From: a virus
Taxonomy: Duplodnaviria > Heunggongvirae > Uroviricota > Caudoviricetes
DNA: 64,000 bases
Virus record (IMG/VR): IMGVR_UViG_3300037129_000090
Direction: 5' to 3' (one strand)
Shown here in pieces: positions 1 to 43,367 of this stretch. Both the position numbers and the translations under genes were made by a program. Numbering within the stretch: position 1 is the first letter of the stretch; every line of letters starts with the position of its first letter. Below the pieces are notes generated by a model. It worked only from the letters and a program-made list of their open reading frames with translations. It was not told the origin of the DNA and ran no database searches.

Positions 1-127
1 TAATTTAATTAATTTAAGTACTTAATTGACACCTCTGGAACAGAGGGAAGAGCTTATGGAGTTATCTTCATTGGAAGGAGCTATGAAGTAGGAAGCTTCG
101 AAGTCTTTAGCTTCGAGGTAGTTCACC
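1..127 (+). ncRNA. TnpB-associated right-end/omegaRNA-like module; partial IS at window edge
   Basis: 29..127 aligns with 43159..43256, directly downstream of the TnpB at 42047..43159. Shared blocks ACACCTnTGGAAC..AGGGAAGAGC, then a hairpin CTTCGAAG-TCTTTAG-CTTCGAGG at 96..118, then TAGTTCAC. The hairpin stem covaries with the other copies while the loop is identical. A stop codon (TGA 27..29) sits at the position of the TnpB stop. Confidence 0.5.
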
Positions 128-279
128 AGCTATCTTGTCATGTAATTTGGAGAATTCGACTTGAAGGTCATATTTTTGTTTCTCCATCTTTTCGATAACT
201 TCGATAAGTTCAACTGGTGAAATGTATCGATTCTTATGTATACCAAATGTATCTGATGTTGAACCTGTTTTAGCCATTA

Positions 280-690
280 TTACCAACCCTTAATGAAACC
301 ATCGATGAAGTTCTGGAAAGAATCTTTGTATATTTTAGACACATACTGAGCTTCGGTTTTAGTTTCACATACCATTGTAAGCTTTACAAAACATTGCGAC
401 CCAAGCTTAGGGTAATTGCAGTCGATAAAACCATTAACTACAAACTTATCAGTTCCCTTTAATGGTGTTACACTAACTTTTGCTGTGTATTTGTCGTCTC
501 CTTTATGAGTACTGCGTTTTCTTGTGCTATTTGAGTCATTTGTGTTTCTACCTTTGTTCGGCGGATTAGCTAATCTTGGCGCTCCTGGTATGGGCTTGCC
601 TGTGAGCCTGTCTAGGCGCGTACCAGTGAGCGTGTAGACTTTACCGCTATTTGTGAGATAAACATAATCATCTTTTGCCACGCATTTCAC
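280..690 (-). CDS. hypothetical protein
   Basis: 136-aa ORF with SD AAGAGGTGA upstream of the ATG; no recognisable motif. Confidence 0.4.
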   Translation of the reverse strand: MKCVAKDDYVYLTNSGKVYTLTGTRLDRLTGKPIPGAPRLANPPNKGRNTNDSNSTRKRSTHKGDDKYTAKVSVTPLKGTDKFVVNGFIDCNYPKLGSQCFVKLTMVCETKTEAQYVSKIYKDSFQNFIDGFIKGW

Positions 691-808
691 CTCTTATTGC
701 TCGGCTTTTCAGATATACGAGCTAGCCCGAGTTCGTTTATAACATCGCGAACTGTGCGAGTCGCCTTGCTCCGAGGTTTCATATTTACTTTGGGTTTAGC
801 TGTAACCA

Positions 809-1024
809 TTACATCACTTTCCATTCGGTTTCTGAATCCAACTTAGTTTGGATTTTCTTATGTAATATGTTTTTCAAAAACCAGACAGCTTTACCTACAT
901 ATTTTGGTATAGCGCATTGACCACAGGAATGTGTCTCTCTCTTGAAGAGTTCTGAAGCCAACTTTACTAACTGTTCTCCTGTCATTGGTTCTTTGTTGTC
1001 GCCAACAATATACTGTCGTGCCAT
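809..1024 (-). CDS. hypothetical protein
   Basis: 71-aa ORF; Cys pair SCGQC; no confident family. Confidence 0.3.
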   Translation of the reverse strand: MARQYIVGDNKEPMTGEQLVKLASELFKRETHSCGQCAIPKYVGKAVWFLKNILHKKIQTKLDSETEWKVM

Positions 1025-1059
1025 ATTGTATCTGTATCAAATTTTGTGTTTGCATACTT

Positions 1060-1360
1060 AAATAGGTTTGGAGACTTTTCATCCAGATATTTATACTTTA
1101 TAATTTATATTTATATAGAAATAATACTCCTAATTTTATGTCCAATTTTTCTCTTATACTCCTTCTATACATGAGAACTTTTTACAATATTATATCTTAT
1201 GTTATTAATTTAGTAATAAAATAATTTACTAATAAACTAATTTATTATTTATTTAATTTAAGAAGATTAAATTTATTTTCTATTTATTCTAATATAAGAG
1301 CGTATAACTCAAAATTTGGACGTTCATTTTAAAATTATTTATTAATTACTATTTTATCTA
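1060..1360. repeat. AT-rich low-complexity region (>85% AT) with short direct repeats upstream of the primase-helicase gene
   Basis: Reiterated ttatattta / taatttactaataaa units; no ORF. Confidence 0.4.
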
Positions 1361-1503
1361 AGTTGTTGAATAAAACGATATCTATAGCAATGCTTATCCT
1401 TATATACTATGAAGTCTATGTTATTATACATTATTTATATATCTGTAATTTACAAAAATATTATTTAATCATAGTTTTTGTAGACGTAGAAGGAGTTTGT
1501 ATT

Positions 1504-4248: not shown

Positions 4249-4261
4249 TTCGACATTGGCT

Positions 4262-4292
4262 CATCGAAGCCAATTCTGATTTAGTATTACTA
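4262..4292 (+). terminator. hairpin TTGGCT-catcga-AGCCAA followed by a T-rich tract
   Basis: Inverted repeat immediately after the stop at 4248. Confidence 0.35.
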
Positions 4293-4550: not shown

Positions 4551-5135
4551 ATGAAAGCTGGAGAAGTACTTAAGGTTCTGCACATCTCAAGACCAACACT
4601 CTACAGGTATGCAGAGGCTGGCTACATTAAAAGACGCTTACTTCCGAATAAGAAGTACGACTATGACGATGAAAGCGTCTACAGCTACCTTAACAAAGAT
4701 GTCAAGAGGAAGACAGTAATTTACAGCAGGGTCTCCACTACAAAGCAAAAGAAAGACCTTGAGAACCAGATTGATTACCTAAAAAACTGGGCTTTCAATA
4801 CTGGCTATCAGATTCATAATGTCTACTCTGATGTCGCTTCTGGAATTTCATTTGATAAGAGGAAGGACTTCTTCTTGATGCTTGATGAGATTCTGGATTA
4901 CAAGGTAGAAAATGTAGTAATAGCCTACAAGGACAGATTAAGTCGAATAGGATTTGAGTTGTTCTCAATCTTGTTTGCTAAGTTCGGAACTAAAATAATA
5001 GTGGTCTCCGAAGTAGGAAGCAAGAAACTGGACACTGAGGAAATCTTCGAAGAAATAATCTCACTTCTCCACTGCTACAGCATGAAGTACTACAGTAACA
5101 GGAAGAATAAAAAACTCGAAATTGAGATTGAATGA
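4551..5135 (+). CDS. tnpA: IS607-type serine recombinase TnpA
   Basis: N-terminal MerR-like HTH (LKVLHISRPTLYRY) plus resolvase-like core with catalytic-serine region VIYSRVSTTKQ. Confidence 0.85.
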   Translation: MKAGEVLKVLHISRPTLYRYAEAGYIKRRLLPNKKYDYDDESVYSYLNKDVKRKTVIYSRVSTTKQKKDLENQIDYLKNWAFNTGYQIHNVYSDVASGISFDKRKDFFLMLDEILDYKVENVVIAYKDRLSRIGFELFSILFAKFGTKIIVVSEVGSKKLDTEEIFEEIISLLHCYSMKYYSNRKNKKLEIEIE

Positions 5136-5146
5136 GGTGATAGAAA

Positions 5147-6379
5147 ATGGCTACAGTTACACGAACAGAACAAATACAATTTACATCGAATCCAGAGGTA
5201 GATTCTATCGGTAGCCTGTGCCATGCTTCTAAGAACCTCTTTAACTTCTCCAACTACCTTGTCAGACAGCGATTCTTCGAGAATGATAAGCTCTACCAAG
5301 AGAAAGGAGAGAAAGGCAAACATCTCTGGTACAAAGAGTTGTACCCTCTGGTGAAGTCCTCAGAACCTTACAAGGCACTTCTAGCGCAGACAGCACAGCA
5401 GATACTTAAATTGCTTGATAAGAGTTGGAAAGGCTATTTCATGTCTTTCAAGGCTTGGTTAGCACATCCAGAGGACTTCCTTGGTAAGCCCAAGCCGCCT
5501 AAATACAAAGCTAAAAACGGTGAACACATACTTGTTTTCACAAATCAGCAGTGTAAAATTGTAGATGGAATACTAAAGTTCCCTAAAATAGTAGGACTTG
5601 AACTCAAAACAAGATTAACAGATGTTGATTTGCGTGAAGTTCGGATTATCCCAAATGGCGTTAATTACATTTGCGAGATAGTGTACAACAAAGAAGTGTT
5701 TCCGGCAGAAATTAATTCAACCAGAGTTATCGGAATTGATACAGGCGAACGCAACATTGTAACCATTGCAAACAACTTTGGTGCTAAACCGATTGTTGTT
5801 AAGGGCAGTACTGCAAATAGCATGAATCAGTTCTACAACAAAGAGAAAGCAAGAGTCCAGAGCATCTACGATAAGCTAGGAATCAAATACGGCGGTAAAT
5901 TAAGGCATCTGGATTTCAAGCGAAATAATAAGATTAAAGACTACTTCCATAAGCTTAGCCGGATGATTGTTGATTACGCAAAAGACAATAATGTCAAAAC
6001 AATCGTTATCGGTAAAAATGTTAATTGGAAACAGGAGATTAACATCGGTAAGCGAAACAACCAGAAGTTCGTACAGCTTCCTCATGCTAAGCTTATCGAA
6101 ATGATACAGTACAAAGCTGAGGAACTTGGAATAGAAGTAGTCCTGCAAGAAGAGGCGCATACATCCAAATGTAGCTTCCTAGATAACGAATCAATTGAAC
6201 ATCATGCTAAATACGTTGGTCGAAGGATTAAAAGAGGCATCTTTAAAACAGCTAAAGGAATCCTCATTAATGCCGATGTTAATGGTGCTCTTAACATAAT
6301 CAGAAAGGCAACTCTGAAAGCCTTTACAGCAGACGGAGTAGAGGGTGTAGGGTTACACCCAGATAGATGGTACATTTGA
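5147..6379 (+). CDS. tnpB: TnpB (RuvC-like RNA-guided nuclease family), zinc finger degenerate
   Basis: RuvC-I GIDTGERN, RuvC-II ...QEEAHTSK, Ruv[15 protein letters not shown]. The usual CxxC...CxxC between RuvC-II and III is reduced to a single Cys. SD GAGGTGAT. Confidence 0.85.
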   Translation: MATVTRTEQIQFTSNPEVDSIGSLCHASKNLFNFSNYLVRQRFFENDKLYQEKGEKGKHLWYKELYPLVKSSEPYKALLAQTAQQILKLLDKSWKGYFMSFKAWLAHPEDFLGKPKPPKYKAKNGEHILVFTNQQCKIVDGILKFPKIVGLELKTRLTDVDLREVRIIPNGVNYICEIVYNKEVFPAEINSTRVIGIDTGERNIVTIANNFGAKPIVVKGSTANSMNQFYNKEKARVQSIYDKLGIKYGGKLRHLDFKRNNKIKDYFHKLSRMIVDYAKDNNVKTIVIGKNVNWKQEINIGKRNNQKFVQLPHAKLIEMIQYKAEELGIEVVLQEEAHTSKCSFLDNESIEHHAKYVGRRIKRGIFKTAKGILINADVNGALNIIRKATLKAFTADGVEGVGLHPDRWYI

Positions 6380-6458
6380 TACTATCTTTTGAAACAAGAA
6401 GGTAACATGTTTACCATTATTGATAACCTACCTGTTCTATGAATATAGGTGAGATATT

Positions 6459-7004
6459 ATGACTGTTCTAACTGGTGAAACTATAAAACGAATGTGCCAA
6501 GGCGATAAGCCATTGATAAGAAATGCTGTCGATCTTGAAACTCAACTTCAACAAAATGGTATTGACTTAACTTTAAAAAAGATTGAGCGATTTAGTGGTC
6601 GTGGAACAATTGATTTTGATAACAGTAAGCGTCAATTACCACCAATGCATGAATTACCAGTAATTCATGGTAATGAGGGTCTACATTTTTATAATTTATT
6701 CCCAGGTTCATATCTTGTTACTTTTAATGAAATCGTTGATATTCCAAAGGCACTTATGGCGCGTGCGTGCCCGCGCTCATCGTTGATGAGATGTGGCGCA
6801 ACAATGAACACAGCTGTATGGGATGCAGGATATGAAGGTCAAAGTCAAGCACTCATCACTGTTCACAACGATGATGGTATGTGGGTTACTGTAAATGCAC
6901 GTATTGCTCAGATTGTTTTTGAAGAACTTGACGATTATGTAGAGAATGGCTATGATGGTATATACCAAGGCGAAGGCGTTATTTCTGACAAAAAAACTGA
7001 GTAA
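6459..7004 (+). CDS. dCTP deaminase / dUTPase family protein
   Basis: dUTPase-fold motif III PRSSLMRCGATMNTAVWDAGYEGQ...ARIAQIVFEE; N-terminal GIDLTL motif typical of Dcd. Confidence 0.7.
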   Translation: MTVLTGETIKRMCQGDKPLIRNAVDLETQLQQNGIDLTLKKIERFSGRGTIDFDNSKRQLPPMHELPVIHGNEGLHFYNLFPGSYLVTFNEIVDIPKALMARACPRSSLMRCGATMNTAVWDAGYEGQSQALITVHNDDGMWVTVNARIAQIVFEELDDYVENGYDGIYQGEGVISDKKTE

Positions 7005-7009
7005 TATTT

Positions 7010-13599: not shown

Positions 13600-13616
13600 A
13601 TGCTTAGGTGGTTGAC

Positions 13617-15443
13617 ATGGTTAACCTTGGTAAAAATGTGGGTTCGCAAGAGCCCACTTATGCAGAAGACGAAGAAGAATATGAAGAGTATGAGCCTGAA
13701 CCAGAATCAGCACCAGTGATCGTAGATATTCCGATGGACATAAGCGAGGCGGAGTATACTGTCCATGATGGTGGAATTATAACTGGCATGCCTGCACTCG
13801 TCGTTAAAATGGTTTCGTGTAATTTGCACTGTAGCTACTGTTTCGGCGCAAAAAGTGGTAGAGATCAGGATGGACATTATCACAGAAGACCCACACTATG
13901 TCCACCAAACAAAAAAGTTATTTCAATACATAGAGTAAAGGCTGGTGATGTGGTTTTAACTTATGATGAAAACCTTAAGTTGGTTGAAACCACTGTAGTA
14001 AATGTCTTAACGAGAGACGTTGATGAATGGCTAGAAATTATTATAAATAATAAAAAGTATTTCGTTACACCAGAACATCCATTTTTCACTACGAGAGGAC
14101 TTACACCCGCACAAAATTTAGAAATTGGAGATATGATAATTCATTCATCGTCACGAGATAAGATGTCATATCGTATGATTGGTGATAAAAACCCTATACG
14201 TAATATTGATATTCTAAAGAAGAAAATGGAACATACCGATTATGATATAGTTGGTGAAAAAATCCATAATACGCTGCAAGCTCAAATTGAGCGCGGTGAA
14301 TATATACATCCATTTAGTAAATTAACAAAGGAGCAAAAGACTGAAGCTATAAGAAAACTTTCCTTGGGTAAATTAGGTGATAAAAACCCTCGTTGGTCTG
14401 GTGGTCGTTCTACTTGGGATAATAACACACGTCCGAATTATTTTATTTTAACAGAAATGATAGAGAAAGGTGTATATACAGAATGTAAAATATGTGGCTC
14501 TATCGGCTCTAATGGTGGTAGATTATTGGAAGTGCATCATTTAGATGGTGATCCGAATAATGACGATCCTTCTAATCTAACCATTATCTGCCATAAATGT
14601 CATAGCAAAATACACAAAAGAGGAAATAATTTTTGGATGAATCCACGCAAAGATGGTGTGTGTGTTTCCACTGAGTTAGATTTCAGAATGTTAGAACTCA
14701 ATGGTATGGAGGTTACTAAGATAACTAGAGTAACTAATTCAAAAAAGAAACTGAAAGTGTATAATTTTCAGTGTTCGCCATACAACACATATCTTATAGA
14801 TAATATGTGGGTTCATAACTGTGACGTAATTAAACGGAAGATTGAGCGCTCATATAACATGAATAGTATGATCCAATTACTGGTTGGTTATGCAGACTTA
14901 GACCTTATCATCACTGGTGGTGAGCCATTTGTCCAACCCGAAGCTCTTGGTTTCTTAATTAATGTGGGACTCGATGCAAGAAAAGAATTTGGATATTCAA
15001 CAAATGTAGTTGTTGAGACCAATGGTACAATAGGTCCAGAAATATTACGAAGAACACAGTATGAAGCTAGTCGTGTATCAGAAGAAAATCTAAAGGCTGT
15101 CGTTTGGTCTATAAATCCTAAGCTGCATAGTAGTCATGAAGAATGGTCAAAAACGCGATTCACAGATTTTATGGAATTTCCGAATGTTCAAGTACGGCTT
15201 ACGGTGAACCCATTCGACCCTGATGATTTGTCTGATATGAGGCGAATAGCGAGTTTGATACCATCAAACGTACATATTGTGGCACATCCAATGGTTCAAG
15301 ACCTTGAATCATATGATATAGAGGCTTATCAGCGTTCTTTACATGAGTTGTATAAAATCATAATCGATGAACGTCTTGCTAGAGTACGTATTATTCCGCA
15401 GTTACATAAAGTGATTTGGGGAATGAGAAAGGAGTCAATTTAA
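13617..15443 (+). CDS. queE: 7-carboxy-7-deazaguanine synthase QueE (radical SAM) interrupted by an in-frame HNH intein
   Basis: CNLHCSYC (CxxxCxxC) motif. C-terminal exteins ITGGEPFVQPE...VRIIPQLHKVIWG match the QueE ends ISGGNPALL...VRVLPQLHTLLWG. The listed ORF starts at an alternative GTG at 13608. Confidence 0.8.
   Translation: MVNLGKNVGSQEPTYAEDEEEYEEYEPEPESAPVIVDIPMDISEAEYTVHDGGIITGMPALVVKMVSCNLHCSYCFGAKSGRDQDGHYHRRPTLCPPNKKVISIHRVKAGDVVLTYDENLKLVETTVVNVLTRDVDEWLEIIINNKKYFVTPEHPFFTTRGLTPAQNLEIGDMIIHSSSRDKMSYRMIGDKNPIRNIDILKKKMEHTDYDIVGEKIHNTLQAQIERGEYIHPFSKLTKEQKTEAIRKLSLGKLGDKNPRWSGGRSTWDNNTRPNYFILTEMIEKGVYTECKICGSIGSNGGRLLEVHHLDGDPNNDDPSNLTIICHKCHSKIHKRGNNFWMNPRKDGVCVSTELDFRMLELNGMEVTKITRVTNSKKKLKVYNFQCSPYNTYLIDNMWVHNCDVIKRKIERSYNMNSMIQLLVGYADLDLIITGGEPFVQPEALGFLINVGLDARKEFGYSTNVVVETNGTIGPEILRRTQYEASRVSEENLKAVVWSINPKLHSSHEEWSKTRFTDFMEFPNVQVRLTVNPFDPDDLSDMRRIASLIPSNVHIVAHPMVQDLESYDIEAYQRSLHELYKIIIDERLARVRIIPQLHKVIWGMRKESI
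13899..14816 (+). mobile_element. intein (Hint domain + HNH homing endonuclease) inside queE
   Basis: Starts at the Cys of TLC|PPNKK; block B TPEHPFF; HNH CKICGS...HHLDGDPNND...CHKCH; ends WVHN followed by extein Cys. Confidence 0.7.
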
Positions 15444-28778: not shown

Positions 28779-29081
28779 ATGGACATATCTTATCAATTTG
28801 TAGCATTCGTTGTGTTATTGCTTCTGGGCGTAGTCATACTTGATAGTGCGGTTTCATCGCAAGGCGATAGCTTGAACAGTTTAAATAATTATACTCTTAA
28901 CTTTACCCAGAATCCCCAAGCTGGAAGTACGTTAGTTGTAGACCATCAGGTGTTTGAGTTCACAAATAACACATCATTAAATGATGGTAACATTCCTGTG
29001 TTTATCGACGCCGATGTGAATACTACGGCAGCCAATCTTAAGCAAGCGATTGGTAATCATACAAGTCTGGTGGTCTCGTAA
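28779..29081 (+). CDS. small secreted/membrane glycoprotein-like protein, translationally coupled to the giant surface protein
   Basis: Signal/TM segment VAFVVLLLLGVVIL; several N-x-S/T sequons; stop overlaps the next ATG (TAATG). Confidence 0.5.
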   Translation: MDISYQFVAFVVLLLLGVVILDSAVSSQGDSLNSLNNYTLNFTQNPQAGSTLVVDHQVFEFTNNTSLNDGNIPVFIDADVNTTAANLKQAIGNHTSLVVS

Positions 29082-32000
29082 TGAAAACAATGAACATTAT
29101 ACTTTCAGCTTTATTTATTTTATTGCTAGCAGGAATGGCTGGTGTTGCGTCGGCTCAAGCTTATTGGATCGATAATAATAATAATATGTGGGTTAATACA
29201 AGTATACCAGCTGGTATAAACACTACAACACTTTATGTTACAAAAACAGCTGGCAATATATCTAATGGAAGTAATGTGTTTGATTTGTATGATGAATTTA
29301 ATGGCAATACATTGAATAATTCATGGATGAAAATTAGTAATCCAACAACGGCAAGTGTGGGTTCAGGTATCTTGACAGTTAAGCCATCTGGTGGTTCTGC
29401 TTTCATTGGTGGTGTAAGAACAACATCGAATTTGTCTAATAATGATTTCATATTAGATACACGTATGTCTTTTGATAATTATAATGGTGCGATAATGTAT
29501 CGTGCCAGTAATAGTAATTTTTATCCAGGTGATTTTGTGTGGGTTCAAGATACTGGTGCGTGGGGATTTTCTCATAAGCCAACTGCCACAACTTATATTC
29601 TTGATACTAGTGGTGGAATATGCGCAAGTGACACTTATTTTAATCTTACACTTAAAGTATATGGAAATAATATTGAGTTGTACAAAGAGGGTGTATTACA
29701 GAAGACAACTAGTGATTCTAGCATGCCAGCGAGTGGGGGTATAGGTTTTTCATCATGGAGTGGTGGTGGTGCTGATAATAATAAAATAGATTTCGTCAGA
29801 GTTAGAAAATACAATGCAACTGAACCAACTGTAAGTGTTGTGACAAATGGTGTCTCAGGTTATATAGTTAATATATCAAGTGGTACGTCACTTACAAATT
29901 ATCAAGTTAACATAAGTGGTGCGGCTTTAGGTGTTACATCTGCTGGTGATTCATATTCAGTAAGTACTACCCCACCGGGTTTAATTTCGTTTACTTCAAA
30001 TGTAACGTCTGGTACATATCCTTTAACTGTTAAATTCAATGACACATCTTCTAATTCACCAACTATATGGGCATGGAATTTTGGTGATAATACAGCTAAT
30101 GTTACAACACAAAATTGTACACATACTTTTGTGGGTGTTGGAACGTTTACTGTTACACTTGGTGCAACCAGTAATGGGATTACTACATATGCACAGCAAA
30201 CAGTAACTGTAAACAAAACAACTCCAACTATAACATGGTCAAATCCAGCCAACATAACTTATGGAACTGCTTTATCTGGTACACAACTCAATGCAAATGT
30301 AGCTTCTCCTGCTGGTTCAATTACATATAGTCCTGATACAGGTGCGGTACTTGCAGCTGGTACTCAAACGTTAGGCTGTACATTTACACCTACTGATACT
30401 GCTAATTACAGTACAGCCACAGGTAGTGTATCTTTAGTTATTAATAAAGTTACTCCAGTTATAACATGGACTGTGCCTGACGCTATTACTTACGGCACAG
30501 CACTTTCTGGTACTCAATTATCAGCTACGTGTCCTCAAACAGGGTCTTTCACATACAATCCTGTGAGTGGAACAGTGATTGCAGCTGGAACTCAAATTTT
30601 ACAAACTACATTCACACCATCTGGTGCAGATGCTACTAACTATACAACAAACATAGCTTCTGTAAATTTAACTGTGAACAAAGCGACGCCAGTAATTACA
30701 TGGGCTACACCAGCAGCGATTACCTATGGTACAGCTTTGTCTGCAACGCAATTATCAGCCACGTGTCCACAATCAGGTAATTTTGTGTATTCACCTGTTA
30801 GTGGTACAGTACTGGGTGTGGGTAACAAAACACTATCAACTACATTTACTTCGTCAGGTGCAGCTGCTGTAAATTATACGAATAATACAGCATCGGTATA
30901 TTTAACTGTAAATAAAGCAATACCAAGTATTACATGGGCTACGCCGACAGCTGTAAATTATGGAACAGCATTAAGTGATACGCAATTGAATGCAACTTCT
31001 GCAACTGCTGGTGCAATGACATATATTCCTGCTTCTGGAACAATATTGGCGGCTGGCAATCAGACACTTAATGTCACATTAACTCCGACAGACATAGCTA
31101 ATTATACCACTGCTACGGCTTCTGTGACACTCGTAATCAATAAAATAGTGTCTGTTATATCATGGGATACGCCTGAAACTATTGACTATCCGACTGTATT
31201 AAGCGCAACACAATTAAATGCAACTTGTAATGCACCTGGTACATTAGTTTATACTCCGCCAGTTGGTACTTTATTAGGTGTAGGAACGCATAATCTTAGT
31301 GTTACATTTACACCGTCAGACCTGACCAATTATACAACAGCTACAGACCAAGTCGCACAGATCGTTATAAATCAAAATAAGACTAATTTAACATGGATTC
31401 CTCCCGCAGACATAGTATATGGTACGCCATTGAGTGCAACGCAACTAAATGCTAGTGGTGGTGATATACCTGGTGTTTTTACATATGCTCCAGCAACTGG
31501 AACTGTATTGGGTGTAGGTACACAGATTCTTAATGCTACGTTTACACCAACAGATTATCTAAATTATTCAGGTAATTCAATAAATGTAACATTGAATGTG
31601 ACACAAGCAACACCAACAATTACTTGGAGTACACCAGCTAACATAACTTACGGAACTGGTTTATCTACAACCCAATTGTCTGCTACTTCTCCACAATCAG
31701 GAAGTTTTGCCTATTCACCTACAACAGGCACTATATTTGGTGTAGGTACACATACTCTAAATACAACATTTACACCGTCTGGTGCATCTGCGGTAAACTA
31801 TACCACAAATACAGCTTCTGTAAACTTAATAGTTAATCAAGCAACACCAAGTATTACATGGAGTAATCCAGCGGCTATAACTTATGGAACAACATTGAAC
31901 TCTACTCAACTTTCAGCAACTTGTATTGCAGCTGGTACATTTACATATACACCAGCGAGCGGGTACATAATGCACGCGGGCGCTGGACAAACTCTACATG

Positions 32001-35000
32001 TGGACTTTGCGCCAACAGATGCTGTAAATTATACAGTGGCTTCAAAAGATGTCGCAATAACGGTGAATAAAGGCACAACCAGTTTCACAGCTAATGTAAG
32101 TACAGTTACTATACCTGCTGGTGTACAATTTACAGATACTTCAACAGGTGCACCGACTCATTGGTCTTGGGACTTTGGTGATGGAACTACCGATACTGTG
32201 CAAAATCCAATACACTATTTTACCACAGCTGGTCATCATAGTGTAACTTTGAATTTCTCGGACTTCGCAAATTACACCTACGAATCTGGACCAACCGATA
32301 TTTTTGTGCTTAATGCAATACCAGTTGCAAATATCACAATGAATGGAAAGCAGGGCGCAATCAATACAACTGCACCATTAATAGCTTACTTTAATGATAC
32401 TTCAAACGGTGTAAATATTACACAATGGTCTTGGGATTTCAATGATACTATGGGTGGTCTTCAATATGCAACAACTCAGAATGCCACTCACGTATTCCCA
32501 TTGGCTGGTAATTATACAGTAACGTTAGCTGTAACAAACGATGGTGGTATTAATACTACAGAAATGCCAATAACAGTTGTTGGTGGCGGAGGTACTGGTG
32601 GACCACAAAAACCAATCGCTGGTTTCTCTGCGAATGCATCAATTGGTTATATTCCATTAACTGTACAATTCACGAATGTTAGTGCATTTACACCTACTTC
32701 ATGGCGTTGGGATTTCGGTGACAATACAAATAGTACTCTAGAAAACCCAATTCACACCTATCCAGATCGCGGTGTATATAATGTTACATTCACTGCGACA
32801 AATGACTATGGATCAGATACAGCACAGTGTATTAACTTTATTCATACATACTACGCTCCGCCTGTTACTAACTTTATCACAAATGTAACTAATGGCGATA
32901 TACCTCTAAATGTTCAATTTACCGATACATCAACAGGTATAATTTCCGCGTACAATTGGTCATTTGGTGATGGTACGTATAGTACAGAACAAAATCCAAT
33001 ACATGTATATACGCAAATTGGTTTGTATAATGTATCGTTGAATGCAAGTAACATAGACAATAACTATACAGTTACAAGAGTCAACTACATAGTTGTGGGC
33101 GTACCAATACCTGCACCAGTGGCTGATTTCAATGCAAATATTACAAGTGGAGCTGCACCTACAACAGTTCAGTTTGTTGATAATAGTACTGGTCCGGTTA
33201 GTAATTACACGTGGGATTTTGGTGATGGTATTGGTTCGTATACTCAAAATCCAGTACATGTATATGCAAATAATGGTAATTACACAGTTTCGTTAAATGT
33301 TAGTAATACAAAAGGGTTTAATGTATCAACAAAATATAACTATATAGTTGTAGCAGAAAGTATACCAGTGCCAGTTTCAGATTTCCATGCAGTAACTACA
33401 TCTGGTGGTGTACCTTTCAGTACACAATTTATAGACGATAGTACTGGTATTGTGCAGAGTCGTGTATGGGATTTCGGAGATGGTAACACAGCGACATCAC
33501 AGAATCCAACACACACCTATACACAAGTTGGTGTTTATACTGTCTCGTTGAATGTGAGTAATAGTAATGGATTCAATGTGTCAGTCAAAGCAAATTATAT
33601 AAATGCGACTTCACAATCACCAGCACCAACTGCGGCATTCCATGCAGTAACCGCCACAGGAATACCACCACTCGATGTACAGTTCATAGATGATAGTACA
33701 GGTGTTGTTGATAATCGTGACTGGGATTTCGGCGATGGTAGTACAGCACATTCACAGAATCCAATACACACGTATACGCAAGCAGGTACTTATACAGTTA
33801 CATTGAATGCCAGTAACTTCAATGGATTTACTACTTCGACAAGAACTAATTACATTGGTGTTAGTGCTGTAGAACCAGCACCAGTTTCTGCATTCCATGC
33901 AAATATGACTGGTGGATTAGTACCTCTAACTGTTCAGTTTGTAGATGACAGCGATGGTAATGTCTCTGGTAGAGTGTGGAATTTCGGTGATGGTAATGGT
34001 TCGAGTGCATTGAATCCAATACATACATATTCAACAGTCGGTGTTTATACAGTTTCTTTGAATGTAAGTAATGCTGGTGGTTCTAATGAATCAATGAAAG
34101 TAGGTTATATTAATGCAACAGACATTGCAATCCCGCACCCACCACTTGCCTCATTCAGAGAGAATGTAACTGGTGGAATTGCGCCGGTTACAGTACAATT
34201 CAAAGATACAAGTAGTAATACACCAACATACTGGTTATGGAACTTCGGAGATGGTGTAGGAACAAATGAGCAGAACCCCACCCACACATATACAGTACCT
34301 GGTACTTACAATGTAACATTGGAAATTGGTAATGTTGATGGAAATGATACAATCTCCGAGCTTGTAAATGTGTTAAAACCAATTAGTATACCAGTTGCTA
34401 ATTTCACTTCGGATGTTAGTGTAGGTGGGCTACCACTGACCGTACATTTCATAGACCTTTCGAGTAATGACACAGCTAATTGGTTATGGGACTTTGGTGA
34501 TAATAATACGGCTATAATCGAGAGTCCTACCCATGTATACCAGCAAGCTGGAAATTACACAGTTAATTTAACTGTGAATAACTCTGCCGGTAGCAACACA
34601 ATGACAAAGATTGATTACATAGTTGTAGGCAACCAAGTAAGGGCAAATTTTACAACAAATAACACGAATGGTACAGTTCCTCTGTTTGTTCAATTCACCG
34701 ATGTGTCGACAGGTTCACCGCAGAACTTTAGTTGGAATTTCGGAGATAATGCAACAAGCACAGAGCAGAATCCGATGCATGAATACAATGTATCTGGAAA
34801 CTACAGTGTTTCAGAGACTGTGGGGTTAGGTAATGCGAATGATACAATGACAAAAACGGATTATATTACAGCGCAATTACCATCAGCTGCACCACCGATC
34901 GCTCAGTTCTATGTGAGTGAAACCAATATTTCAATACCAGATGGTGTAGATACCAACACATCCGTGAAATTTACCGATACTTCGATAGGTGTTGGTATTA

Positions 35001-35617
35001 ATGCATGGGTGTGGGTGTTTGGTGATGGAAATACCAGTAATGAGCAGAACCCGACTCATATCTATCAGAAACCTGGCACATATAACGTTGTGTTGACAGC
35101 CACTTCACCGTATGGCACATCTGTTTCTGCACCGACAACGTTGAACATCATACAAGGCGCACCAAATGTAACTATGATGGTAAATGTGTCTGAAGGGTAT
35201 GTTCCCTTAACAGTAGCATTCATAGATTCAACTACTAATGTGAGTGGGCAAACATATTGGGATTTTGGTGACGGTAGTACTTCGAATGAATCTAATCCTA
35301 TTCATACATATATTGACGATGGTATTTATGGGGCTACGTTAATTGTAAATAGGAATGGACAAAATTATAGTATTACTCAGATGATCAATGCACATTACGT
35401 TACTGTGGCGACAGTAAAAATTAATGCGACTCAGCAGGACCAGATGCTAGATGTAAATTCAACAGCCGGTAAATCATTGAGATTGGAACAAACAAGCAAA
35501 CAATCAGCAATGTATGGTGCTGTTCATGCAGTTGAAAAAGGAACAAGCGGCGGATACACCTTATTAGTTGTGGCAATTCTAATATTGGGTGCTCTATCAT
35601 TCTGGTTCTTGTTTTAA
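29081..35617 (+). CDS. giant secreted surface protein: signal peptide, ConA-like/LamG-like N-domain, about 12 Ig-like MBG-like repeats (loose family call), about 18 PKD domains, C-terminal TM anchor
   Basis: Signal peptide ...GVASA|QA; repeated ITYGTALS..TQL.AT...GTF.Y.P..GT.LAAG.QTL...FTPTD..NY units; repeated W.FGDG..S.EQNP.HTY PKD motifs; C-terminal hydrophobic LLVVAILILGALSFWFLF; very high density of N-x-S/T sequons. Confidence 0.85.
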   Translation: MKTMNIILSALFILLLAGMAGVASAQAYWIDNNNNMWVNTSIPAGINTTTLYVTKTAGNISNGSNVFDLYDEFNGNTLNNSWMKISNPTTASVGSGILTVKPSGGSAFIGGVRTTSNLSNNDFILDTRMSFDNYNGAIMYRASNSNFYPGDFVWVQDTGAWGFSHKPTATTYILDTSGGICASDTYFNLTLKVYGNNIELYKEGVLQKTTSDSSMPASGGIGFSSWSGGGADNNKIDFVRVRKYNATEPTVSVVTNGVSGYIVNISSGTSLTNYQVNISGAALGVTSAGDSYSVSTTPPGLISFTSNVTSGTYPLTVKFNDTSSNSPTIWAWNFGDNTANVTTQNCTHTFVGVGTFTVTLGATSNGITTYAQQTVTVNKTTPTITWSNPANITYGTALSGTQLNANVASPAGSITYSPDTGAVLAAGTQTLGCTFTPTDTANYSTATGSVSLVINKVTPVITWTVPDAITYGTALSGTQLSATCPQTGSFTYNPVSGTVIAAGTQILQTTFTPSGADATNYTTNIASVNLTVNKATPVITWATPAAITYGTALSATQLSATCPQSGNFVYSPVSGTVLGVGNKTLSTTFTSSGAAAVNYTNNTASVYLTVNKAIPSITWATPTAVNYGTALSDTQLNATSATAGAMTYIPASGTILAAGNQTLNVTLTPTDIANYTTATASVTLVINKIVSVISWDTPETIDYPTVLSATQLNATCNAPGTLVYTPPVGTLLGVGTHNLSVTFTPSDLTNYTTATDQVAQIVINQNKTNLTWIPPADIVYGTPLSATQLNASGGDIPGVFTYAPATGTVLGVGTQILNATFTPTDYLNYSGNSINVTLNVTQATPTITWSTPANITYGTGLSTTQLSATSPQSGSFAYSPTTGTIFGVGTHTLNTTFTPSGASAVNYTTNTASVNLIVNQATPSITWSNPAAITYGTTLNSTQLSATCIAAGTFTYTPASGYIMHAGAGQTLHVDFAPTDAVNYTVASKDVAITVNKGTTSFTANVSTVTIPAGVQFTDTSTGAPTHWSWDFGDGTTDTVQNPIHYFTTAGHHSVTLNFSDFANYTYESGPTDIFVLNAIPVANITMNGKQGAINTTAPLIAYFNDTSNGVNITQWSWDFNDTMGGLQYATTQNATHVFPLAGNYTVTLAVTNDGGINTTEMPITVVGGGGTGGPQKPIAGFSANASIGYIPLTVQFTNVSAFTPTSWRWDFGDNTNSTLENPIHTYPDRGVYNVTFTATNDYGSDTAQCINFIHTYYAPPVTNFITNVTNGDIPLNVQFTDTSTGIISAYNWSFGDGTYSTEQNPIHVYTQIGLYNVSLNASNIDNNYTVTRVNYIVVGVPIPAPVADFNANITSGAAPTTVQFVDNSTGPVSNYTWDFGDGIGSYTQNPVHVYANNGNYTVSLNVSNTKGFNVSTKYNYIVVAESIPVPVSDFHAVTTSGGVPFSTQFIDDSTGIVQSRVWDFGDGNTATSQNPTHTYTQVGVYTVSLNVSNSNGFNVSVKANYINATSQSPAPTAAFHAVTATGIPPLDVQFIDDSTGVVDNRDWDFGDGSTAHSQNPIHTYTQAGTYTVTLNASNFNGFTTSTRTNYIGVSAVEPAPVSAFHANMTGGLVPLTVQFVDDSDGNVSGRVWNFGDGNGSSALNPIHTYSTVGVYTVSLNVSNAGGSNESMKVGYINATDIAIPHPPLASFRENVTGGIAPVTVQFKDTSSNTPTYWLWNFGDGVGTNEQNPTHTYTVPGTYNVTLEIGNVDGNDTISELVNVLKPISIPVANFTSDVSVGGLPLTVHFIDLSSNDTANWLWDFGDNNTAIIESPTHVYQQAGNYTVNLTVNNSAGSNTMTKIDYIVVGNQVRANFTTNNTNGTVPLFVQFTDVSTGSPQNFSWNFGDNATSTEQNPMHEYNVSGNYSVSETVGLGNANDTMTKTDYITAQLPSAAPPIAQFYVSETNISIPDGVDTNTSVKFTDTSIGVGINAWVWVFGDGNTSNEQNPTHIYQKPGTYNVVLTATSPYGTSVSAPTTLNIIQGAPNVTMMVNVSEGYVPLTVAFIDSTTNVSGQTYWDFGDGSTSNESNPIHTYIDDGIYGATLIVNRNGQNYSITQMINAHYVTVATVKINATQQDQMLDVNSTAGKSLRLEQTSKQSAMYGAVHAVEKGTSGGYTLLVVAILILGALSFWFLF

Positions 35618-35621
35618 GTAT

Positions 35622-35658: not shown

Positions 35659-35939
35659 TTTTAAAAGTCTAGTTAAATTTAATAAGGAGTAATTCAATTT
35701 TTTTTACGAGTGATAATATGGGAATAATTGACGACATTCTTGAAATCAATCCTAACTGTCTTTTTGCGTGGACAGAATGGAGTAAAAAAGGTACTTCTCC
35801 GCTTATTAAAAAACCGAGAGAAGAAAAAGATGGTCATTATACAACGTACATTCTTCTTGTTGTGCGTGCGATGGCTTCTGGTAGTGGTAAAACATTCAAT
35901 TACACAGAATTACGAGAAACAGAGCTGAAAATCATTTCA

Positions 35940-37375
35940 AAGATTATAAGTGGGGTCAACTACCGCTAGGCTAAAGACCTAGCGGCTTGTAATTTCCTCA
36001 GATTTTACAATTTGATTCAAACGCTAAAAACAAACGCTTTGGTCTGTTGACTAGACCTCTACTAACTATCTTCTGTATAGGAGAATCGCTAGCTACTTTT
36101 CTCAATATATTTAATGCACCATTTACATCTGCATTAATTAATTGACCAGTAATACTTTTATACAAGCCTCTCTTAACACGTCTTGATTTACCATAAGGTT
36201 GTTTTTTAATTTCATCTAAAGCCAAAGCATCGGTTCTACTTGTATATGCTTCATCAACTAATTGATATTTGATACCATAGTAGTCACATTTACTTTGAAG
36301 CTTACCTTTGAATTTTCCAAATGGTATTGACACAAAGCTCTGATTATTGCGCTTGCCATGATTTATTCCTTGCTTTATTTCCTTAAGTTCACCGATTAGA
36401 ATATTACCTATCTTATTTTCTAAACAGTGTTTTATGATGTAGTTAACTGTTCGGTTCATGAACTCTGATATCTTGTTAGCGCGTTTAGTTAAGAGTTTAA
36501 TCTGCTTATTTGTTATTAATTTTATTCCTTGTTTATCTTTGATACTCTGTAATCTAGCATTCTCCTTGTTATACCACTGGTTAATAGATTTTATATACTT
36601 ACCATCTATGATAATGGCAGTCCCATCGGTATCTATCCAAGTTGCAAAATTAGAAACGCCTAAATCTATGCTAAGATATTTAGAGTAATCAAGTTCTTGT
36701 TGTTGTTTCTTTTCTTCATAACAATATTTTATTTTGAAATACCGCCCATCATACATCGGTATGACATGAACTTCTTGTATACTGAACTTTTTAGTTCTCA
36801 ATGGTTTTGGTAATTTAAAAGTTAACAGCTTTTTAGCATTCCTGTTTTGCTTTAGAAACTCAATTGAAATACCCAACCGTATATTATTACCTTTGAATGA
36901 AAAAGCATTCTTAGGAAATGCTATCAAGAAATTACTATCTTTGTTAAGATAATGTGGTATATTAGGTTTATCCAATTGTCCATTTCTATAGAGTTTTAAC
37001 AAACCAAAAAAGCTTCGCATCCCTCTTTCTACCATCTTCAGAGATTGCTGAGCACTAGCCGCCTGCATTAACTTATAATTCTCATCTTCCTTGCAAAGAT
37101 GATAATTTTGAGGATATTTCAAAAATTCATTATTATTGAAGAAATATTGTCGAGTGTTATACAATCCTAAATTATACAAGTTTTTAGAAGCGCGACTAAG
37201 TGACCTCAACATTATATATTGTTCCTTGTTTAATCTAAGATTATTTGTGATACTCAACATTATGTATACATAATGTGATATTTGTATATATACTTTTGTC
37301 TAAATCAAATTGTATTTAACTTCCGGTCGCAATTCATCCACGAAACTAAAGATTTCGTGGTTTTCTTATGAACCT
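35940..37375 (-). mobile_element. IS200/IS605-like non-autonomous element (tnpB only)
   Basis: Subterminal hairpins with identical loop TCTTTAG at both ends on the minus strand: CCACGAAA-TCTTTAG-TTTCGTGG (37346..37368) and CCGCTAGG-TCTTTAG-CCTAGCGG then TAGTTGAC (35950..35982). No tnpA. Confidence 0.65.
35998..37260 (-). CDS. tnpB: TnpB, paralog of the IS607-associated copy; zinc finger absent
   Basis: Ruv[10 protein letters not shown], RuvC-II ...LVDEAYTSR, Ruv[15 protein letters not shown]. No Cys pairs between II and III. N-terminal [18 protein letters not shown] matches ASKNLFNFSNYLVRQRFF of 5147..6379. Confidence 0.85.
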
Positions 37376-37457
37376 TTTATAAAATTATTAAAAGATAAGT
37401 TAGAAGTAATTAAAGCAATGGCTTTTTTAAAAGTGTAAGATAGAGCGTAGTACGCTC

Positions 37458-38078: not shown

Positions 38079-38154
38079 ACGTGTGCTTAACTTGCCTCTT
38101 TTAACAAATATATTTATATACCTTTAAACACATTATGTATTTGAGGTTATGATT

Positions 38155-39488: not shown

Positions 39489-39497
39489 GGTAATTTT

Positions 39498-40238: not shown

Positions 40239-40240
40239 CT

Positions 40241-40666: not shown

Positions 40667-40668
40667 TT

Positions 40669-41127
40669 ATGCCTAAAATTGCAATAAATCGAGCTATTGG
40701 TGGTTTTACATTGTCTCATAAAGCAATGATGAGATATGCTGAACTCGCAGGTATTGCAATATTCCCATATTACCATAATCTTGATAATGATACTTTCATT
40801 CGGCTTACAGCTAGAGAAATTGAAACAATAGATGACCACAATCGTTCTGATTCCGAAGAATATTATGGTAATCCATGGTATTTTTACGTTGATGCAGATG
40901 TGATTAATTATAGGAATTCGGAAGCTGATAGTAAATTTTTAACTGAGAGAGATATTAAAAGAGACGACCCACTTCTGATACAGGTCATAGAGGAACTAGG
41001 CGACGATGCTACTGGCTCAAGTGGTAAGATCAAAGTTGTGGATGTACCAGATGATGTGGTCTGGGAAATAGACGAAAATGACGCTGGGTACGAATGGGTA
41101 CAAGAAAAACCACGTAAGTGGTACTAG
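40669..41127 (+). CDS. hypothetical protein, tandem paralog 2
   Basis: See paralog 1. Confidence 0.55.
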   Translation: MPKIAINRAIGGFTLSHKAMMRYAELAGIAIFPYYHNLDNDTFIRLTAREIETIDDHNRSDSEEYYGNPWYFYVDADVINYRNSEADSKFLTERDIKRDDPLLIQVIEELGDDATGSSGKIKVVDVPDDVVWEIDENDAGYEWVQEKPRKWY

Positions 41128-41130
41128 ACG

Positions 41131-41475
41131 GTGATTTGTGTGTTTGACGAGTATATATGCAAGCATTTCAATATGAGTGAGGTGTATCTTTCAGATGTAG
41201 CAGATGCTACACTGCATTGGTGTTATGCTACATGGCGCAAGATTGCATGGTATGCGGCTGCAATAGCAGTGTTATCCTATATAACATATATCGGCTGGTT
41301 GGATGTAATTAATAAACTAATTGACGCAGCTGTGTTTCTTGCTCCGATTATAGCTATTCTCACGGTAGCAACTTTCATAGGTGGATACATTCTTGTATAT
41401 TCTCTCGTGTGGATCACAGAGAAGTGTAGAACGATTAAGGTTGCGCAATGCTCTATGGTCAATAGAAACAAGTAG
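41131..41475 (+). CDS. membrane protein
   Basis: Three TM helices. Confidence 0.5.
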   Translation: MICVFDEYICKHFNMSEVYLSDVADATLHWCYATWRKIAWYAAAIAVLSYITYIGWLDVINKLIDAAVFLAPIIAILTVATFIGGYILVYSLVWITEKCRTIKVAQCSMVNRNK

Positions 41476-41483
41476 GTATTGCC

Positions 41484-41945
41484 ATGGTAGATCATTATGT
41501 TCATGTAACTAGGCGGCATACCGCGCTCGGGCGCGTTGTGTATGACGATGTTAAAATTCCACTATGGCATAGACGTGAAGTTGAATTATCAGATATACCG
41601 TTTATACAGTTGGTGGAACATCTTCCTGACGTAATTAAAGCAGGTAATGAATGTATTATTTATCCGGTAGTGTTTTTTAAATCCACTGATGAAGTTGTTG
41701 GAGATGATGTAGCTAGTAAAGTTATGCACGTTATGCACAAGTTTTTTAAGCAAAGCGATGTATTAGTTGTAGTAGCAATTGTTTATTTAAAAGAAGAGGA
41801 ATTTGCGCAGTATGGCAATTCGTATAGAGGTCAGTTCTCATATAAAGAAGACGTGCATGGTGTTGGTGGCTTTAAAGACACTTTTGGTGATTTGCCTTAT
41901 CAGTTTAATGTCGTCATTATGAAAGAATCACTATGGGATTTATAA
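41484..41945 (+). CDS. hypothetical protein
   Basis: Stop abuts the IS left end. Confidence 0.5.
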   Translation: MVDHYVHVTRRHTALGRVVYDDVKIPLWHRREVELSDIPFIQLVEHLPDVIKAGNECIIYPVVFFKSTDEVVGDDVASKVMHVMHKFFKQSDVLVVVAIVYLKEEEFAQYGNSYRGQFSYKEDVHGVGGFKDTFGDLPYQFNVVIMKESLWDL

Positions 41946-42046
41946 GAGGTTCGCAAGAAAACCACTGAGTCTTCAGCTCAGTGGATGAATTGCGATGACA
42001 AAATTTTACCAAAAAGTATATATGTTGGTAAAACAATATACGTACT

Positions 42047-43159
42047 ATGTTAAAAGCCTACAAATATCGACTATATCCTACAAAGAACCAAGCTGATCAA
42101 TTTAATCAGCATATCGGTAGTTGTAGATTTGTCTATAATTGGGCTCTTGACCAGAAAATTAAAGCATATGAACAAACAGGTAAATCTGTATCAAGATATA
42201 CATTAAATAAACTTATACCATCTCTTAAAACCAATAGTCCGTGGTTAAGTGAAGTTAATTCACAATCATTACAGGGAATGACTAAACAGGTAGAATCTGC
42301 TTTCACTAAATTCTTTAGAGAAAAAGCAGGTTTCCCAAAGTTCAAATCTAAGAAGAATCCAATACAGTCATTTCCAGTACCACAGCATTATGAAGTAGAT
42401 TTTGATAGTGGTACAATCAAGTTACCTAAGATAGGTGACGTGAAAGTTGTTCTACATAAAAAATTTACAGGTACTCTTAAAACTGCTGTTATCTCAAGAA
42501 CAGTCACAGGCAAGTATTTCATTAGTGTCCTAGTTGATAATAATGAAGCTACTCCTAGTAAATCTATATTTTCTGAAATAACAACTGTAGGTGTAGATGT
42601 TGGTATCAAGGATTTTGCAGTTCTCTCGACAGGAGAAAAAGTAGAGAATCCAAAATATCTTAAAAATTCGATTCATAGACTAAAATGTCTTCAACGAAGA
42701 GTATCAAAGAAAGTTAAGGGTTCTAAAAATAGAAATAAAGCAAGACAACATCTTTCAAAGATTCATGAAATCATTACCAATCAAAGAAATAATTTCCAAC
42801 ACAAAATCTCTTCTAGATTGATATGCGAGAACCAAGCTATAGCGTTGGAAACTTTGAATGTTAAAGGTATGTTAAAGAATCACTGTCTTGCCCAATCGAT
42901 AAGTGATGTAGCATGGAGTAGTTTTGTAACTAAGTTAGAGTACAAAGCCGAATGGTTCGGAAAAACCATACTTAGAATAGGTAGATTTGAACCGTCGAGT
43001 AAGACGTGTAGTATTTGTGGCTATCGTAATAATACTCTAACATTGAAAGATAGGGAATGGGAATGCCCTGATTGCAAAACAAAACATGATAGAGATATTA
43101 ATGCGGCGATAAACATTAAGAAATTTGCATTAATAGATCAGAATTTAATCGGAATATAA
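42047..43159 (+). CDS. tnpB: TnpB (canonical, with zinc finger)
   Basis: RuvC-I VGVDVGIKD, RuvC-II LEYKAEWFG, Zn finger CSICGY...CPDCKTKHDRD, RuvC-III DINAAINI. Confidence 0.9.
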   Translation: MLKAYKYRLYPTKNQADQFNQHIGSCRFVYNWALDQKIKAYEQTGKSVSRYTLNKLIPSLKTNSPWLSEVNSQSLQGMTKQVESAFTKFFREKAGFPKFKSKKNPIQSFPVPQHYEVDFDSGTIKLPKIGDVKVVLHKKFTGTLKTAVISRTVTGKYFISVLVDNNEATPSKSIFSEITTVGVDVGIKDFAVLSTGEKVENPKYLKNSIHRLKCLQRRVSKKVKGSKNRNKARQHLSKIHEIITNQRNNFQHKISSRLICENQAIALETLNVKGMLKNHCLAQSISDVAWSSFVTKLEYKAEWFGKTILRIGRFEPSSKTCSICGYRNNTLTLKDREWECPDCKTKHDRDINAAINIKKFALIDQNLIGI

Positions 43160-43256
43160 CACCTATGGAACGTAGGGAAGAGCCTGTGGACTTGTGAACA
43201 CTAGTTCGAAGTATGAAGCAGGAAGCCACTGAGTCTTTAGCTCAGTGGTAGTTCAC
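43160..43256 (+). ncRNA. putative omegaRNA (right-end element RNA) scaffold of the TnpB element
   Basis: Lies immediately 3' of tnpB. Structured, with stems that covary against the copies at 1..127 and (minus strand) 35950..35982 while the loop TCTTTAG and tail TAGTTSAC are conserved. Confidence 0.55.
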
Positions 43257-43367
43257 ATGTTGTTTCTTTTTCAGTACCGCAACCATCGCTACAACTATTG
43301 CAGTACCCCAACTGATTCAATGCTGAACCACACATACTACATCTTTTATGCCATTGTTACCACCTTC

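Follow-up and report, generated by a model that had tools for sequence, protein, structure and literature searches.

The 64,000-nucleotide stretch of viral DNA in IMG/VR record IMGVR_UViG_3300037129_000090, hereafter the window, contains three elements, A, B and C, that we interpret as non-autonomous, tnpB-only (IS1341-type) insertion sequences of the IS200/IS605 family. Each carries at its right end (RE) a hairpin that would be used twice, as a DNA site for the transposase TnpA and as the 3' part of the omegaRNA of TnpB. We assign this explanation as a whole a probability of about 0.85. On comparison with related sequences, the decisive evidence for the omegaRNA is a covarying pseudoknot and not the hairpin stem. 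The TnpB proteins are named below by the first coordinate of their genes: 42047 (element A), 35998 (element B) and 5147, the window's fourth TnpB, which belongs to an IS607 element.

Hairpin modules at the element ends

The RE modules of the three elements follow a common plan, in which an 8-bp stem that covaries between copies encloses the loop TCTTTAG and is followed by the tail TAGTT(C/G)AC (Table 1), as an earlier note on this DNA had described. The two plus-strand copies, in elements A and C, are 74% identical across 98 nt, and the homology of the element B module to them is limited to the last ~36-45 nt. Elements A and B carry hairpins of the same kind in their left ends (LEs), which are 82% identical across 57 nt. 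These had also been recognised in the earlier note, at 41965-41987 and 37346-37368, positions that we correct in Table 1. Its statement that the loop is always TCTTTAG holds for the three REs and for element B's LE; in element A the LE loop reads TCTTCAG, and relatives vary. Within each element the LE and RE loops are alike. The two hairpins of elements A and B have the same strand orientation, as expected of IS200/IS605 elements, which have subterminal hairpins on one strand and lack terminal inverted repeats.

A degenerate hairpin pattern occurs at 4 sites in the window, against 0.01 expected. Searched over the whole 64 kb, a covariance model of 71 family members, a training set that included the three window REs, returned those REs (53-58 bits), the two LE hairpins (17-18 bits) and no further match. 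Folding of the RE hairpin, which corresponds to omegaRNA stem 4, gave z = -1.8 to -3.4.

Insertion boundaries, motifs and guides

The boundaries of element A were obtained from two metagenomic contigs, L286 and L287, reached through a neighbouring 98-aa protein. In L287 the site is empty (...CATCTTTTAT joined directly to ATGTTGTTTCTTTTTCAG..., the right side also written ATGTTGTTTC...), while L286 has the same flanks with an element between them (AAGAGGTTCG...GGTAGTTCAC) and no duplication. The comparison thus delimits element A as a segment inserted directly 3' of TTTAT without target duplication, the signature of IS200/IS605 elements, with the junctions TTTAT-element-ATGTTG.... The flank of its RE is identical to what stands after TTTAT in the empty site, as would be expected of a homing guide. 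Since both empty and filled sites exist, element A is polymorphic in the population. The transposon-adjacent motif (TAM) TTTAT precedes not only the LEs of elements A and B but also LEs at many unrelated loci of relatives, and the guide flanks differ among copies.

Several searches around the ends were negative. No secondary targets of the three guides were found within the window, exact-flank searches of IMG/VR found no empty sites, and where an empty site of element B or of the IS607 element was sought, every contig was filled. The TnpB of element C, which is cut by the window start, could not be recovered upstream of the window, the sole long contig ending inside the repeat. The C-terminal peptide left in the window (...NLINLST*) resembles ...QNLIGI* of TnpB 42047 on direct reading of the sequence.

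Two side observations concern these boundaries. The left flank of element A at 41925-41943 (...CACTATGGGATTTAT) differs from that in L286:3790-4010 (...GTTCTACATCTTTTAT), and the right flank is identical; genome variants that part exactly at the left boundary suggest recombination between copies or an independent event. An 83-aa open reading frame (ORF) on the opposite strand, 35718-35969 (+), enters the right end of element B, and its final codons are insertion-sequence DNA, so the insertion apparently remodelled the 3' end of this ORF.

Conservation of the hairpin in relatives

An exact search for the motif GTCTTTAGC-N5-GGTAGTTSAC found at least 120 stretches of viral contigs. The stem is perfect in 76 of 112 distinct copies, with many different sequences. 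In 71 distinct sequences, 91% of the stem 4 cells are paired (28-45% in slid controls), and double changes occur at 5 of the 8 pairs, in 22-34 of the 71. At 46 loci the hairpin directly follows a tnpB ORF of the typical clade, which often stops at the tail's TAG; in many relatives the ORF reads through the hairpin before stopping there. This arrangement bears on the idea that tnpB transcription ends at the hairpins, as intrinsic terminators. In favour of that idea is a GC-containing stem directly past a stop codon, but no U-tract follows the hairpin (the tail is UAGUUCAC), the same hairpin also stands upstream of the genes, in the LE, and many ORFs of relatives, as noted, cross it. We regard a terminator function as scarcely credible.

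Several points weigh against the interpretation as transposon ends with an omegaRNA, or against the figures just given. The pattern used to collect the viral set prescribes loop, tail and three positions of the stem, which leaves the remaining five stem pairs as the sole free test, and kinship among the sequences inflates shuffle statistics. The loop varies in relatives retrieved by protein (GCTAG, GTTAG, TCTATAG and long loops). An Rfam scan matched no family, either at the gathering threshold or at a permissive E <= 10. A tblastn search with 24 Y1 TnpAs from related loci detected no Y1 TnpA gene or remnant in the window; elements A, B and C are therefore non-autonomous, and their current mobility hangs on an unseen helper. 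Finally, our literature search found no direct activity test of TnpBs that, like 35998 and 5147, lack the zinc finger and have a beta5 Glu.

Among the same family of hits we noted two further groups of loci. At 60 of 116 hairpin-plus-tail hits (L006-L125) the upstream ORF is unlike the three window TnpBs and has no CxxC motif; these loci may be elements resembling palindrome-associated transposable elements or miniature inverted-repeat transposable elements, stand-alone omegaRNAs or truncated loci. At least 10 IMG/VR contigs (L009, L013, L041, L043, L056, L061, L063, L084, L085 and L100, 8 of these 10 from sample 3300045988) carry the 3' half of an RE, TCTTTAG-CTCATGGG-TAGTTCAC, with a broken 5' arm and a common downstream flank TT(A/T)AACTCCTTG. 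These contigs apparently preserve a fossil right end, situated at a conserved phage locus.

A pseudoknot and a DNA guide separate RNA from DNA

The earlier note took stem covariation among the three copies as strong evidence for a functional RNA. By itself, that covariation does not show an RNA. The TnpA of IS200/IS605 elements requires hairpins of just this kind, in single-stranded DNA, at either end (Meers 2023). The LEs, which lie outside the omegaRNA, carry the hairpin too, and the omegaRNA sense is the strand on which TnpA acts, so stem covariation alone cannot separate RNA from DNA. One could go further and regard the hairpin as purely a DNA signal, a TnpA-binding subterminal palindrome whose presence in a transcript is incidental and whose covariation is uninformative on RNA. 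The LE copies, the similar LE and RE loops and a DNA-level covariation described below all agree with this, as does the ISDra2 structure, in which the stem 4 loop is disordered.

What speaks for RNA lies elsewhere. In sequence, the tail GUU(C/G)AC complements that of a hairpin loop, the loop of stem 1, ~90 nt upstream, inside or just past the tnpB ORF (Table 1). Between element A and copy C, stem 1 shows a compensatory change (CCTAT/GTAGG vs CCTCT/AGAGG). Seventeen relatives of TnpB 35998, collected by protein similarity, have 100% of the cells of stem 1 and the pseudoknot paired, with double changes at 5 of 11 pairs (slid controls, 10-46%). Tail and loop change in concert: besides GTTGAC with GTCAAC, more distant relatives show GTTCAC with GTGAAC or GTGGAC, GTTGAA with TTCAAC, GGTTTAA with TTAAACC or TTAGACC, and GGTTGAC with GTCAACC. 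Loops of the GGAAC type are present in typical-clade relatives. Because this tail-loop covariation is needed by no TnpA mechanism and matches the pseudoknot of a solved omegaRNA, it is RNA-specific evidence. In ISDra2, as resolved by cryo-electron microscopy (Nakagawa 2023), stem 4 is followed by a short tail pseudoknotted with the stem-1 loop, and stem 4 is bound by the WED domain. A purely DNA-level hairpin explains neither the covariation nor this contact, and the hairpin necessarily lies between scaffold and guide; we consider it very unlikely that the hairpin acts in DNA alone. The proposal that a TnpB omegaRNA scaffold ends, on its 3' side, in this module is thus supported, on the ISDra2-like TnpB 42047, the stem 4 position and the covarying pseudoknot.

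The ISDra2 pseudoknot numbering (-105 to -103) had initially been placed on GGAAU at 43151-43155; this placement was dropped for the GGAAC loop of the hairpin at 43162-43176, which covaries and is conserved in relatives. As a side observation, the stem-1/pseudoknot segment of element B lies within codons for the conserved motif G-(L/R)-V-N-R-P (G-L-V-N-R-P in element B), and pseudoknot variants arise partly through synonymous codons, such as GTG in place of GTC for Val (L126-L285).

DNA-specific evidence comes from the 3 nt immediately 5' of the RE hairpin (GAA or CAA), the DNA guide, which covaries with the TTC or TTG of the transposon-encoded motif (TEM): the pair is G-C in 43 sequences and C-G in 8. 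Judged by this covariation, it is the pairing used by TnpA. The tail would accordingly be shared by three roles or partners: it would act as TEM, pair with the TnpA DNA guide and enter the RNA pseudoknot. For the conservation of the loop, TnpA offers a better explanation than TnpB.

In the mechanism that we propose, the top-strand hairpin and the 3-nt DNA guide would let a Y1 TnpA, which must come in trans, cleave after the TEM TTCAC or TTGAC and after TTTAT. In the transcript, tail and stem-1 loop would pair as a pseudoknot, and the flanking 16-20 nt would act as guide. The resulting TnpB-omegaRNA ribonucleoprotein would cut TTTAT-plus-guide sites, that is, empty copies of the element's own insertion site, and such cutting would favour retention of the element.

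Table 1 Coordinates of the TnpB elements and their parts in the window
Feature	Position	Strand	Details
Element A	41944-43256	+	1313 bp, tnpB-only IS200/IS605; bounds from empty site L287 vs filled site L286
TAM TTTAT, element A LE flank	41939-41943	+	from empty/filled comparison and LE consensus
LE hairpin, element A	41962-41984	+	CCACTGAG-TCTTCAG-CTCAGTGG, prolonged by TCGCAA/TTGCGA
tnpB, element A	42047-43159	+	370 aa, typical DRDxN clade; D184, canonical RuvC-II E268, D350 (beta5 position not applicable); C321, C324, C340, C343
Stem 1, element A	43162-43176	+	loop GGAAC, pairing with tail GUUC (pseudoknot)
RE module, element A	43221-43256	+	stem CCACTGAG/CTCAGTGG, loop TCTTTAG, tail TAGTTCAC
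RE hairpin (omegaRNA stem 4), element A	43226-43248	+	
Tail/TEM, element A	43249-43256	+	TAGTTCAC
Guide, element A	43257-43276	+	ATGTTGTTTCTTTTTCAG...; identical to sequence after TTTAT in empty site
Element B	35955-37378	-	1424 bp, tnpB-only IS200/IS605 (IS1341-type); ends by homology to element A and family consensus
TAM TTTAT, element B LE flank	37379-37383	-	
LE hairpin, element B	37338-37360	-	CCACGAAA-TCTTTAG-TTTCGTGG
tnpB, element B	35998-37260	-	420 aa, NADxN clade; D199, canonical RuvC-II E291, beta5 E337, D378; 0 Cys in TNB
Stem 1, element B	36041-36057	-	pseudoknot loop GTCAAC at 36051-36046
RE module, element B	35990-35955	-	stem CCGCTAGG/CCTAGCGG, loop TCTTTAG, tail TAGTTGAC
RE hairpin (omegaRNA stem 4), element B	35963-35985	-	CCGCTAGG-TCTTTAG-CCTAGCGG
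Tail/TEM, element B	35955-35962	-	TAGTTGAC; GTTGAC is the 3' pseudoknot strand
Predicted guide, element B	35935-35954	-	flank 3' of RE; unique in window
Element C	1-126	+	cut by window start; last TnpB codons (2-25) plus omegaRNA/RE
Stem 1, element C	32-46	+	loop GGAAC
RE module, element C	91-126	+	GGAAG-CTTCGAAG-TCTTTAG-CTTCGAGG-TAGTTCAC; one T.G wobble in stem
RE hairpin (omegaRNA stem 4), element C	96-118	+	loop 104-110
Tail/TEM, element C	119-126	+	TAGTTCAC
Predicted guide, element C	127-146	+	by analogy with element A; unique in window
IS607 element	4551-~6430	+	carries the fourth TnpB
IS607-type tnpA	4551-5135	+	serine recombinase, Pfam Resolvase 8e-19; tnpA-tnpB pair recurs in related contigs
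IS607-linked tnpB	5147-6379	+	directly follows tnpA; NADxN clade, no zinc finger, RuvC-II rearranged; D198, canonical RuvC-II K290 (no Glu), beta5 E336 (in EEAHTS), D377; 1 Cys in TNB (C342)
IS607 candidate omegaRNA scaffold	6343-6432	+	stem 1 6343-6360, hairpin 6401-6415, tail TAACC 6424-6428

Zinc-finger-less TnpBs and their RuvC sites

The three complete TnpBs fall into two clades. TnpB 42047 carries the DRDxN motif (DRDIN, in HDRDINAA) and a C4 zinc finger, as expected of the typical clade, while 35998 and 5147 carry NADVNG, the 'derived' NADxN signature. The earlier note was right that the zinc-finger cysteines are absent from the TNB segment of 35998 and reduced to a single one in 5147. 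It had called 35998 a paralog of 5147; the two do share the NADxN clade but are only 34% identical. Its claim that both keep all RuvC catalytic residues is accurate for 35998, and for 5147 only in the rearranged form, with a lysine at the canonical RuvC-II position and the glutamate on beta5 (Table 1).

Loss of the zinc finger, which had been called unusual for TnpB, proves to be widespread. CxxC pairs are absent from all of the best 120 homologues of 35998, which come from Methanosarcina, Methanohalobium, Methanoculleus, Thermococcus, Asgard archaea, Firmicutes, cyanobacteria and others, and the TNB segment has at most one Cys in 139 of 141 distinct relatives. By this measure the trait extends across a clade with thousands of TnpBs from archaea and bacteria, and is already described: Altae-Tran 2023 reported loss of the zinc finger in large branches together with a RuvC-II rearrangement in which the Glu is relocated. 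In the 141 distinct relatives, the RuvC-I Asp, the beta5 Glu in a '(D/E)E-x-(Y/H)-T-S' block directly before the TNB insert and the RuvC-III Asp are each invariant (141/141); at the canonical RuvC-II position 80 of them have Tyr and no more than 17 have Glu. None of the 121 closest relatives of 5147 has Glu at that site (it is K, H, Y or N), and 120 retain E336. The 35998 subfamily mostly retains both glutamates. Assignment of E336/E337 of 'DEAYTS' as the canonical RuvC-II Glu was ruled out, as alignment to ISDra2-type proteins puts the canonical site at 'IGELK'.

The structure prediction that the earlier note had suggested gave a confident AlphaFold model of 35998 (predicted local distance difference test score 86.9, predicted template modelling score 0.76) with a TnpB/Cas12f fold. 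Its best structural matches are Cas12f, ISFba1 TnpB and ISDra2 TnpB (template modelling (TM) scores 0.6-0.7), and no solved structure close in sequence to 35998 was found.

An alternative is that these loci are decaying relics that lack a transposase, the zinc-finger-less TnpBs, 5147 above all, being inactive or repurposed as nuclease-dead DNA binders. The missing TnpA, K290 of 5147 and the IS607 copy, whose tnpA-tnpB pair sits at one and the same site in all 7 related contigs among the matches listed, fit this picture. Every reading frame is intact, however, as are the ends and the pseudoknot; the Asp, beta5 Glu and Asp, and E336 of 5147, are under the near-complete conservation given above; element A is polymorphic; and conserved rearrangements of this kind were interpreted as active in Altae-Tran 2023. 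Decay is accordingly an unlikely explanation, if less so than a hairpin used in DNA alone, and we take 35998 and 5147 to be, most likely, active nucleases whose RuvC site is rearranged. Circumstantial hints suggest that GstTnpB2 may belong to the zinc-finger-less clade; if it does, proof of activity for the branch may already exist.

A more far-reaching idea, which we advance tentatively and think doubtful, is that zinc-finger loss is structurally coupled to the move of the catalytic Glu to beta5, the block directly before the TNB insert, with the 35998 subfamily as a natural intermediate, and that one guide adapter hairpin and TAM serve two deeply diverged TnpB clades, with a triply constrained tail. 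Modular adapter hairpins, besides zinc-finger loss and rearrangement, are described in the literature.

The IS607 element

TnpB 5147 directly follows a serine-recombinase tnpA on the same strand, the arrangement of IS607 elements. It is not linked to the TCTTTAG module: the element lacks this module and has a non-homologous candidate RNA of its own. Similarity to relatives stops at ~6430. Here the tail TAACC is complementary to the stem-1 loop GGTTA (6351-6355), and stem 1 lies inside the last tnpB codons. Loop and tail change together in two distant relatives, ATTTAC/GTAAAT in L306 and TAGTT/AACTA in L308. These few sequences suggest that the IS607 RNA has the same architecture as stem 1 plus tail of the omegaRNA. 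There was no match to RAGATH-18 or any other Rfam family at 6200-6520.

Genomic context and significance

The window also encodes a D5-like primase-helicase, dCTP deaminase, helicases, thymidylate kinase, HNH and PD-(D/E)XK nucleases and a methylase, together with intein-like inserts, two tRNAs and a 2178-aa PKD-repeat protein, and looks like a virus- or plasmid-like replicon. Its host is probably archaeal on the basis of the nearest TnpB relatives, which are from Methanosarcina. Megablast of 20 kb against phage records gave no match, and in a distant blastn search the sole hits were weak tnpB similarities with Campylobacter and Lak phages.

Other features were noted in passing. A radical-SAM ORF at 13608-15443 has HINT/intein-splicing hits and a DNA methylase ORF at 23571-25871 a LAGLIDADG hit; both probably contain inteins. 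The 2178-aa protein (29081-35617) is secreted, consists of PKD-type repeats and has internal DNA repeats of 255 nt and 234 nt. Recurrent intergenic motifs upstream of minus-strand genes, at 47812-54497 and 60120-62004, look like promoters or regulatory boxes; one family spans ~63 nt ('...ACTA...ATATATA...TTGTTA'), and the other is a hairpin 'TTTGTGG...CCACAAA' followed by 'GCCTTGTTAT'. A GC-rich cluster of irregularly spaced 'ACGCGGGCGCG'-type repeats in AT-rich surroundings (62685-63581, also 38058 and 31959) could be an origin or an array of binding sites. The cumulative GC skew peaks at ~42000-43500, and gene orientation switches from plus to minus beside elements A and B.

The value of this analysis is mainly in annotation: four TnpB elements are delimited with TAM, guides and RNA parts, and two over-readings are corrected, one that takes stem covariation as proof of an RNA and one that treats loss of the zinc finger as exceptional. 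The elements and their TnpBs are mostly ordinary and of already known kinds. A modest point remains, experimental proof of activity for the zinc-finger-less, beta5-Glu branch. TnpB 35998 is a convenient test case for the catalytic Glu and the need for a zinc finger, with 404-420 aa, the TAM TTTAT, a defined guide boundary and both candidate glutamates.

Comparison with known systems

Element A resembles ISDra2 of Deinococcus radiodurans. TnpB 42047 matches the ISDra2 protein over its full length (E = 2e-73) and shares its DRDxN motif and C4 zinc finger, and in both systems the RNA, a predicted one here, spans the 3' end of tnpB together with the RE, with the guide outside the RE. They differ in the TAM (TTGAT in ISDra2, TTTAT here), in the scaffold, which appears ~15 nt shorter here, in the lack of a tnpA inside the elements described here, and in the host, here an AT-rich replicon of viral or plasmid-like character with TnpB relatives in Methanosarcina.

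For the 'derived' NADxN TnpBs of Altae-Tran 2023, the likeness extends to the NADxN signature at RuvC-III, the replaced canonical Glu with a catalytic Glu on beta5 (RuvX-like), the branch-wide zinc-finger loss, and associations with both Y1 transposases and serine recombinases. The 35998 subfamily departs from this pattern in mostly retaining both glutamates. The IS607 element resembles that of ISFba1 in having a serine-recombinase tnpA beside tnpB and a TnpB of similar fold (8iaz, TM 0.60). In contrast to 5147, ISFba1 TnpB retains the TNB cysteines in the alignment, its RNA is intergenic and contains RAGATH-18, and sequence similarity is marginal (E = 0.004).

With regard to transposition, the IS608 work (Helicobacter pylori; PMC3201880) describes recognition of the cleavage site by pairing with nucleotides 5' of the hairpin foot. 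The same recognition logic would apply here, with insertion 3' of a short motif and no duplication; the IS608 motifs are TTAC/TCAA and the element is autonomous. The ends match those of the ISGst group. ISGst2 of Geobacillus stearothermophilus has the TAM TTTAT and the TEM TTCAC, and both TnpA excision and TnpB cleavage were shown experimentally (Meers 2023). The ISGst elements share with those of the window the same TAM and TEM, a subterminal hairpin at each end, covariation of DNA guides with TAM and TEM, and different nuclease cargoes with similar ends, and there a non-autonomous majority is mobilised by one TnpA. Such ends also accompany TnpBs of the zinc-finger-less clade from Bacillaceae. 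Element B differs from ISGst2 in using TTGAC, a change that is compensated in both its DNA guide and its pseudoknot loop.

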